A stretch of DNA of 64,000 nucleotides from Vairimorpha necatrix (lineage: Eukaryota): positions 62,001 through 126,000 of the forward strand of contig CP142733.1 in assembly GCA_036630325.1 (NCBI GenBank), written 5' to 3'. Position numbers and translations under genes: made by a program. Positions 3,029 to 3,800 of the stretch are shown piece after piece. The notes under the pieces are model-generated. The model worked only from the letters and a program-made list of their open reading frames with translations, was not told the DNA's origin and searched no databases. The number at the start of each line of letters is the position of its first letter. Position 1 is the first letter of the stretch.

Positions 3029-3800
3029 GGTGCCCTTCGCTTAGTGGTCGAAGGTGAAGCTATCACTATGCATCGGCTGATTTAAATCCCAAGGGCACCA
3101 TAATTGTTTCTACTTTTTCATGATGCAGTTGGAAGAAATCAGGAAAAATGTACACGAGAACATAAAGTTGATTGAATGGAAACTGTATACGTCCAGCTAT
3201 AAGGGTATTAATATCTTGTGTTGAAGTGCACATTAAAGTCGAAAACAGTAACCTCTTGTAATGACTTAATGATACAATAAGGAATCGAATGGGCGCGGTT
3301 TAGTTAAAGCCTATGGCGGTCACTCTAGAGTGAGATTATAGGTCAAACAAACTAAGTAGCACAATCAAAGATCTTGTAAAACTTATCCTACTAGATTTTG
3401 TAACAAGGTAGCCGAAACTAGCGGGAGACTGGTGGTCAACGCAGCCCATAAAAATGCAGCGCTATTGATGTGGCGATGTAAGGTGCTGTAAGTGATATAA
3501 AGGTGATTGTAGATAACTTTGAGTTAGTAAATTATGTCTATCCTCAAGTTATAGTAAAACAAGCCCATTAAGTATATTCGCCGTGCGGTCACTTCGGACG
3601 CGATTCAAGGTATGAATGGAATAGGTTCTCCTAAAGCCAAAGTCTAGTGGTACGGCGGAGATCGCTGGACATGCAAATGTTGTAATGGAAGTTATAGGAA
3701 GTAAAAAATTCATAATAATAGTTTGATAAGGATTACACCCAACCTTCATTGGTCCCTATGTAAGGGTTCTCCCTACACCTTGCTTGTAAAGAAAAAAAAA
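3029..3800 (+). ncRNA. Unknown large structured RNA / SINE-like element, copy 1
   Basis: GC-richer island with no long ORF; colinear homology to 62430-63193; 9-bp stem GGTGCCCTT/AAGGGCACC; 3' hairpin then A-tract. Strand inferred from the A-tail. Confidence 0.55.

Follow-up and report, generated by a model that had tools for sequence, protein, structure and literature searches.

What kind of sequence forms the GC-rich island near the left end of this stretch of Vairimorpha necatrix DNA, and what is its relation to a similar island close to the other end? The window, by which we mean the whole 64,000-nt stretch that was analysed, is about 25% GC, and its genes are of eukaryotic type, short and without introns; among them are choline-transporter-like, MFS, TOG-domain, poly(A) polymerase, forkhead, WD40 and DEAD-box genes. 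The poly(A) polymerase matches its Vairimorpha bombi counterpart at 80% identity and its V. apis counterpart at 72%, which places the source in the Vairimorpha/Nosema clade of microsporidia. A sequence-only reading had taken the two islands for copies of a multicopy, A-tailed, noncoding RNA selected for its structure, possibly ribozyme-like, SINE-like or retro-inserted.

The window also holds a direct duplication of 1.66 kb (35170-36829 and 40523-42183; 90% identical), each member of which carries a 473-aa minus-strand ORF. These two ORFs matched no Pfam family at E up to 0.001 and gave three weak, sub-threshold matches at E up to 1. A 391-aa minus-strand ORF (535-1710) adjoins the left island and had no Pfam match even at E up to 1.

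Two diverged copies of one repeat

Comparison of the islands by blastn gave a colinear, same-strand alignment of 3063-3798 with 62449-63193 (66.1% identity over 761 columns; E 1.4e-33), and a global alignment of the pair gave 70.4% identity over 740 aligned columns, with 62 gap columns besides. The colinearity described earlier for 3029-3800 and 62430-63193 is thus borne out, and every one of the sequence blocks listed as common was found in each copy. The two copies are 59 kb apart, each about 0.8 kb long, noncoding and diverged. Within the 64-kb window, blastn found no other match near the strength of this pair, and a profile built from the pair recovered two places only with nhmmer, copy 1 at 3031-3799 and copy 2. 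The sequence flanking the copies did not align between the loci by either program. The features of the pair are as follows.

3029..3800, plus strand: copy 1 of the ~0.8-kb repeat, GC-rich core and A-run (blastn, nhmmer, GC)
62393..63193, plus strand: copy 2 of the repeat (blastn, nhmmer, GC, global alignment)
3788..3800, plus strand: A-run of copy 1, AAAGAAAAAAAAA, i.e. A3GA9, where the homology ends; A-rich to 3822 (sequence, alignment)
63183..63193, plus strand: A-run of copy 2, A11, where the homology ends (sequence, alignment)

At the 3' end the limit is sharp: both copies close with CTTG(T/C) and an A-tract, as the sequence-only reading had it, and A-runs of at least 9 are scarce in the window (18 on the plus strand). 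The 5' limit is uncertain by about 30 to 60 nt. Weak similarity may reach 2997 in copy 1 and 62393 in copy 2, an alternative register exists, and the 5' limit of copy 2, whose GC-rich core runs from about 62424, falls somewhere in 62362-62424. In both copies a common TTTAAAT sits some 35 to 50 nt inside the GC-rich body, so that the two bodies start at about the same point before it, which argues for a fixed 5' end and not for random 5' truncation. Neither terminal inverted repeats nor long terminal repeats were present in 2900-3900 or 62300-63300. We rejected a solo LTR or a TIR transposon (MITE) on these grounds, and the termini, read by eye, are not TG..CA with matching short duplications.

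Even divergence and no coding signal

The blocks common to both copies were compared with random placement of identical columns in the global alignment. There were 10 runs of at least 8 identical columns, compared with 13.1 expected, and 2 runs of at least 14, compared with 1.5 expected. For each window size tried, windowed identity had a smaller variance than the shuffles had on average (P 0.56-0.71). The blocks are neither longer nor more clustered than a uniform 70% identity produces, and conservation is not patchy. Substitutions between the copies comprise 124 transitions and 131 transversions.

The proposal that the copies share no ORF, and that their indels ignore frame, agrees with our alignment, in which 19 of the 32 gaps are 1 nt long and only 3 are of 3 nt. 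On both strands of both copies, the fewest stops and the longest open frames lay within shuffle expectation, and the autocorrelation of mismatches at lag 3 was -0.04. A comparison of stops common to both copies, block by block, gave nothing informative. We searched Pfam with the 10 longest open pieces and obtained a match for only 1, which was sub-threshold (E 0.15), and a word-indexed protein search with minus-strand pieces returned two candidates, neither of which scored.

These results bear on a possible origin of the copies from a small protein-coding gene, as processed pseudogenes or dead duplicates, with the intact parent elsewhere in the genome. Such an origin would suit the A-run at the 3' end. 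It would also suit the longest plus-strand open frame, which runs for 65 codons in copy 2 with only 3 stops in copy 1, and the common ATGATG, which is followed by about 8 similar codons when read by eye (MMQLEEIR in copy 1, MMYLEQLR in copy 2). However, mismatches in the 65-codon frame fall on the three codon positions at 18/64, 16/65 and 25/65 (p ~0.3 by a hand chi-square), the stop counts and frame lengths are those of shuffled sequence, and the protein searches gave no credible homologue. The sole phmmer match to the 65-aa piece among 1.84 billion representatives was a 1,439-aa tandem-repeat protein (P0121), which we discarded as an artefact of summed weak matches because BLASTP finds no local alignment between it and the query. 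With neither a codon-periodic pattern nor a protein homologue found, the repeat is without coding signal and without credible protein relatives, and we regard a dead gene as an improbable source.

LINE relics beside both copies

A non-LTR retrotransposon adjoins the repeat at each locus.

58424..61973, minus strand: decayed, near full-length, single-ORF non-LTR retrotransposon (LINE) (RVT_1, target-site duplication)
5538..5932, minus strand: copy of that LINE, truncated at the 5' end and 83% identical to 58421-58800 (nhmmer, target-site duplication)

The longer element lies head to head with copy 2, their 5' ends 420 nt apart. Several stops and frameshifts interrupt its ORF. Pfam matched it only to RVT_1 (E 5.2e-11 and 6.8e-06) and, below threshold, to Hjc; a Cys/His motif at the C terminus is accompanied by a nuclease-like domain. 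A target-site duplication of 14 nt flanks the element (58410-58423 and 61974-61987; 13 of 14 identical). The truncated copy lies 1.7 kb beyond the right end of copy 1. Over the span 5527-5943 it has a perfect 11-nt target-site duplication, ATAATCAAAAA, with microhomology at its 5' junction, which is clear evidence that target-primed reverse transcription has operated in this genome. Judging from the LINE duplications beside each copy, target-primed reverse transcription has acted at both repeat loci.

From its Cys/His motif and a PD..E..K-like motif, we take this LINE to belong to the restriction-like-endonuclease (R2-like) clade. Its relatives are proteins of about 1,145 aa, annotated as reverse transcriptase in other microsporidia, and the family is wide in that group: 89 of 682 candidates had E of at most 1e-5, with named members from V. 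apis, Hamiltosporidium and Astathelohania. A 215-aa piece of the LINE C terminus also has close relatives in assemblies of Polistes dominula, Papilio xuthus and Megalopta genalis, and in metagenome-assembled genomes labelled Bacteroidales and Candidatus Riesia; these insect and metagenome relatives probably represent contamination by, or transfer from, microsporidia. The C terminus had no relative in the genome contigs searched and no match in a PDB sequence search.

The islands are GC-richer than their surroundings, as had been noted (copy 1, 0.386; copy 2, 0.365; flanks, 0.20-0.22), and the decayed LINE (0.375) and the LINE fragment (0.359) have the same composition. GC-richness here therefore marks transposon-derived DNA and is not by itself a sign of constraint. 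Single-ORF LINEs of this putative R2-like type adjoin both copies, resemble them in GC content and display target-primed reverse transcription at these very loci. In contrast to such a LINE, however, the repeat encodes nothing, and by blastn and nhmmer it resembles the window's LINE on neither strand and has no 3' sequence in common with it.

Could the two copies be pieces of a longer mobile element of which the window has no intact member, for example the 3' untranslated end of a poly(A)-type LINE, 5' truncated at insertion, or part of an LTR element? The 3' A-run, the LINE-like GC content and the lack of an ORF would fit an untranslated region, and 5'-truncated LINE copies do occur here, as at 5538-5932. 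But the two copies have nearly the same starting point, an outcome seldom expected of random 5' truncation; they share nothing with the only LINE family in the window; their termini are neither LTR-like nor inverted; and no open piece contains a reverse transcriptase or any other domain. We think fragments of a larger element rather unlikely, though less so than a dead gene.

RNA-structure signal is at chance level

The sequence-only reading held that the differences between the copies tend to keep pairing, and on that ground favored a large RNA selected for structure. Minimum free energy did not set the repeat apart from 20 dinucleotide shuffles per sequence, with z-scores of +0.10 (copy 1) and -0.01 (copy 2) for the plus strands and -0.70 (copy 1) and +0.48 (copy 2) for the minus strands. 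RNAalifold applied to the pair gave a consensus structure of -63.6 kcal/mol, in which 18 double-sided changes fell among 128 pairs. Because RNAalifold chooses compatible pairs by construction, the control consisted of 60 re-folded alignments whose columns had been shuffled within conservation and gap classes. These shuffles reached -55.9 +/- 6.6 kcal/mol, placing the real pair at z = -1.2 with 7 of 60 shuffles at least as good, and they had 20.0 +/- 4.1 double-sided changes, with 44 of 60 at 18 or above; with two sequences only, folding and covariation tests of this kind are of limited power. A count of pairs on the alifold structure did beat its own controls and was set aside as circular, since the structure comes from the very two rows on which the pairs were counted.

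Some local hairpins are possible in both copies, one of them just before the A-run. When the alignment was read by eye, most of the five helices offered earlier as examples of maintained pairing proved to lie on different columns or in different registers between the copies, or to be invariant pairs such as CTCC/GGAG, and the hairpin GC(G)GTC...GACGC loses one pair in copy 2. The earlier remark that the element could not be matched to rRNA, tRNA, snRNA, RNase P or group I/II introns was upheld by Rfam, in which neither copy had a match at gathering score to any family, telomerase RNA included. At E up to 10, no match inside either copy reached half of its family's gathering score, and there was no ribozyme, RNase P/MRP, snRNA, rRNA, intron, tRNA, 7SL or 5S match.

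A functional family of large structured noncoding RNAs, possibly mobile or ribozyme-like and kept by selection, would account for GC-richer islands that persist in a background of 20 to 25% GC, for the hairpins that form in both copies and for the near identity of a public contig to part of copy 1 (below). Yet the folding energies and double-sided changes are those of shuffled sequence, divergence is even with no conserved islands, Rfam offers no family, and plainly dead LINE copies have the same GC content. We consider such a family very unlikely; selection for RNA structure is unsupported rather than excluded.

Public reads and wider searches

One public sequencing run, X1, shares sequence with the window (word share, 0.40), and no RNA run among the public runs matched it. 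X1 is recorded as "DNA?". One of its contigs terminates at 15552 in a loose end of 20 A's, which is 26 nt after the stop of the ORF at 14249-15526, and X1 may be cDNA.

A 372-nt X1 contig covers 3213-3581 of copy 1 with 3 letters different, and a contig over the AT-rich flank at 2485-2790 differs at 16 of 304 positions. This comparison, of one contig each, is a hint that the repeat body may vary less than the neighboring intergenic DNA, and it counts against reading the copies as retroposon relics. In two further X1 contigs, 3293 is joined to 3415 and 3483 to 3750, the short sides having 32 and 24 letters; an origin from other, deleted members of the family is possible but unproven. Over positions 1-20000, several intergenic bins have no X1 cover, and no conclusion is based on these gaps or on depth.

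X1 also touches a stretch of about 1.07 kb at 12964-14038 that lies between inverted repeats of about 115 nt, 90% identical. A 566-nt X1 contig connects 12988 directly with 14011 and leaves out 1,022 nt, with 8 nt shared at the join. The explanation may be a polymorphic TIR element, situated a short way upstream of the gene at 14249, or a template-switch artefact at the inverted repeat.

Beyond the window, a two-block motif taken from 3571-3601 had 0 matches in viral, metagenome and prokaryote-genome contigs. A scan with a 5' motif returned three loci (L001 to L003), which we rejected as relatives of the repeat: they match the motif alone, over 23 to 30 nt, as expected by chance.

A retroposon as the proposed origin

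Both stretches represent old copies of a single noncoding interspersed repeat of about 0.8 kb, evenly diverged and without coding or RNA-structure signal. As to their origin, the explanation that we prefer is that they would be relics of a non-autonomous, A-tailed retroposon (SINE-like), or of retrocopies of a polyadenylated noncoding transcript. This fits best because the repeat is a discrete unit with a fixed 5' limit and an A-run, has neither TIR nor LTR, has diverged evenly, has the GC content of a transposon and lies near LINE relics. For the same reasons (discrete unit, common 5' limit, 3' A-run, no ORF and adjoining LINE relics), the part of the sequence-only reading that described a multicopy, A-tailed, noncoding and possibly retro-inserted or SINE-like element fits, and the structure-selected RNA that it attached to this element is the part that found no support.

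Under the retroposon explanation, an RNA ending in an A-run would have served as template, a LINE reverse transcriptase would have copied it into AT-rich DNA by target-primed reverse transcription, and the inserted copies would afterwards have decayed. The LINE at 58424-61973 is a possible source of the reverse transcriptase. Its 3' end is T-rich, not A-tailed, and shares no sequence with the repeat, and the partner enzyme is therefore not assignable to the LINE in the window. Retroposition, the identity of the LINE that donated the enzyme and the absence of a present function in the copies are all three points that we infer.

If retroposition placed the copies, each might be bounded by a duplication of its target, and candidates can be named at both loci.

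2986..2996, plus strand: candidate target-site duplication of copy 1, partner 3823-3833, 10 of 11 identical; not above chance
62386..62392, plus strand: candidate target-site duplication of copy 2, partner 63192-63198, 7 of 7 identical; not above chance

For copy 1, 29% of 600 mock sites of the same geometry did equally well or better, and for copy 2, 77% of 600 mock sites had an exact repeat of at least 7 nt. Also against the retroposon explanation, an interspersed family is an extrapolation from two copies in 64 kb. We see the explanation as about evenly poised between right and wrong, because the repeat's own target-site duplications are at chance, it has no pol III-type head, no LINE can be assigned as its partner and two copies are visible.

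We rejected a tRNA-like head. The first 72 nt of copy 1 (3029-3100) contain a perfect 9-bp closing stem, GGTGCCCTT / AAGGGCACC, with an A-box-like TCGCTTAGTGG inside it, and copy 2 keeps neither. ARAGORN found no tRNA in the head of copy 1, even at a lowered threshold, and made only a poor minus-strand call in copy 2.

How closely does the repeat resemble known retroposed sequences? Like SINEs, it is a discrete noncoding unit whose 5' end is fixed and whose 3' end has an A-run, present as dispersed, diverged copies among LINE relics that have duplications. Unlike them, it is long at about 0.8 kb, has internal T4-T5 runs, has no detected tRNA, 7SL or 5S head, ends in a 3' sequence unrelated to that of the local LINE, and has target-site duplications of its own that are candidates only, at the level of chance. 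With processed pseudogenes and retrocopies it shares the 3' A-run, the lack of introns, flanks without promoter-like conservation and even decay along its length. It differs from them in that no AATAAA occurs within 40 nt upstream of the A-run and in that two diverged copies have a 5' limit in common.

A bolder version would make the repeat a lineage-specific, polyadenylated noncoding RNA family of about 0.8 kb in Vairimorpha/Nosema that is still transcribed and retro-mobile. We regard this as a long shot. If true, microsporidia would gain their first described non-autonomous retroposon, and the body of the repeat might be constrained for RNA structure or for binding of a LINE protein.

Significance for microsporidian genomes

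Families of LINE, LTR and DNA transposons have been tabulated for Nosema species (PMC4202319), and the words "SINE" and "non-autonomous" are absent from the main text of that paper. A literature search over titles and the opening parts of abstracts returned no title on SINEs in microsporidia.

The repeat pair is real but fairly ordinary, with no indication of a cellular function or of a new RNA class. Of the readings considered here, descent from a structured RNA is unsupported and descent from a retroposon is plausible but unproven. If the retroposon reading holds, a non-autonomous element would join the mobile-element repertoire of a reduced parasite genome, and such relics would be useful as insertion markers between strains and species.
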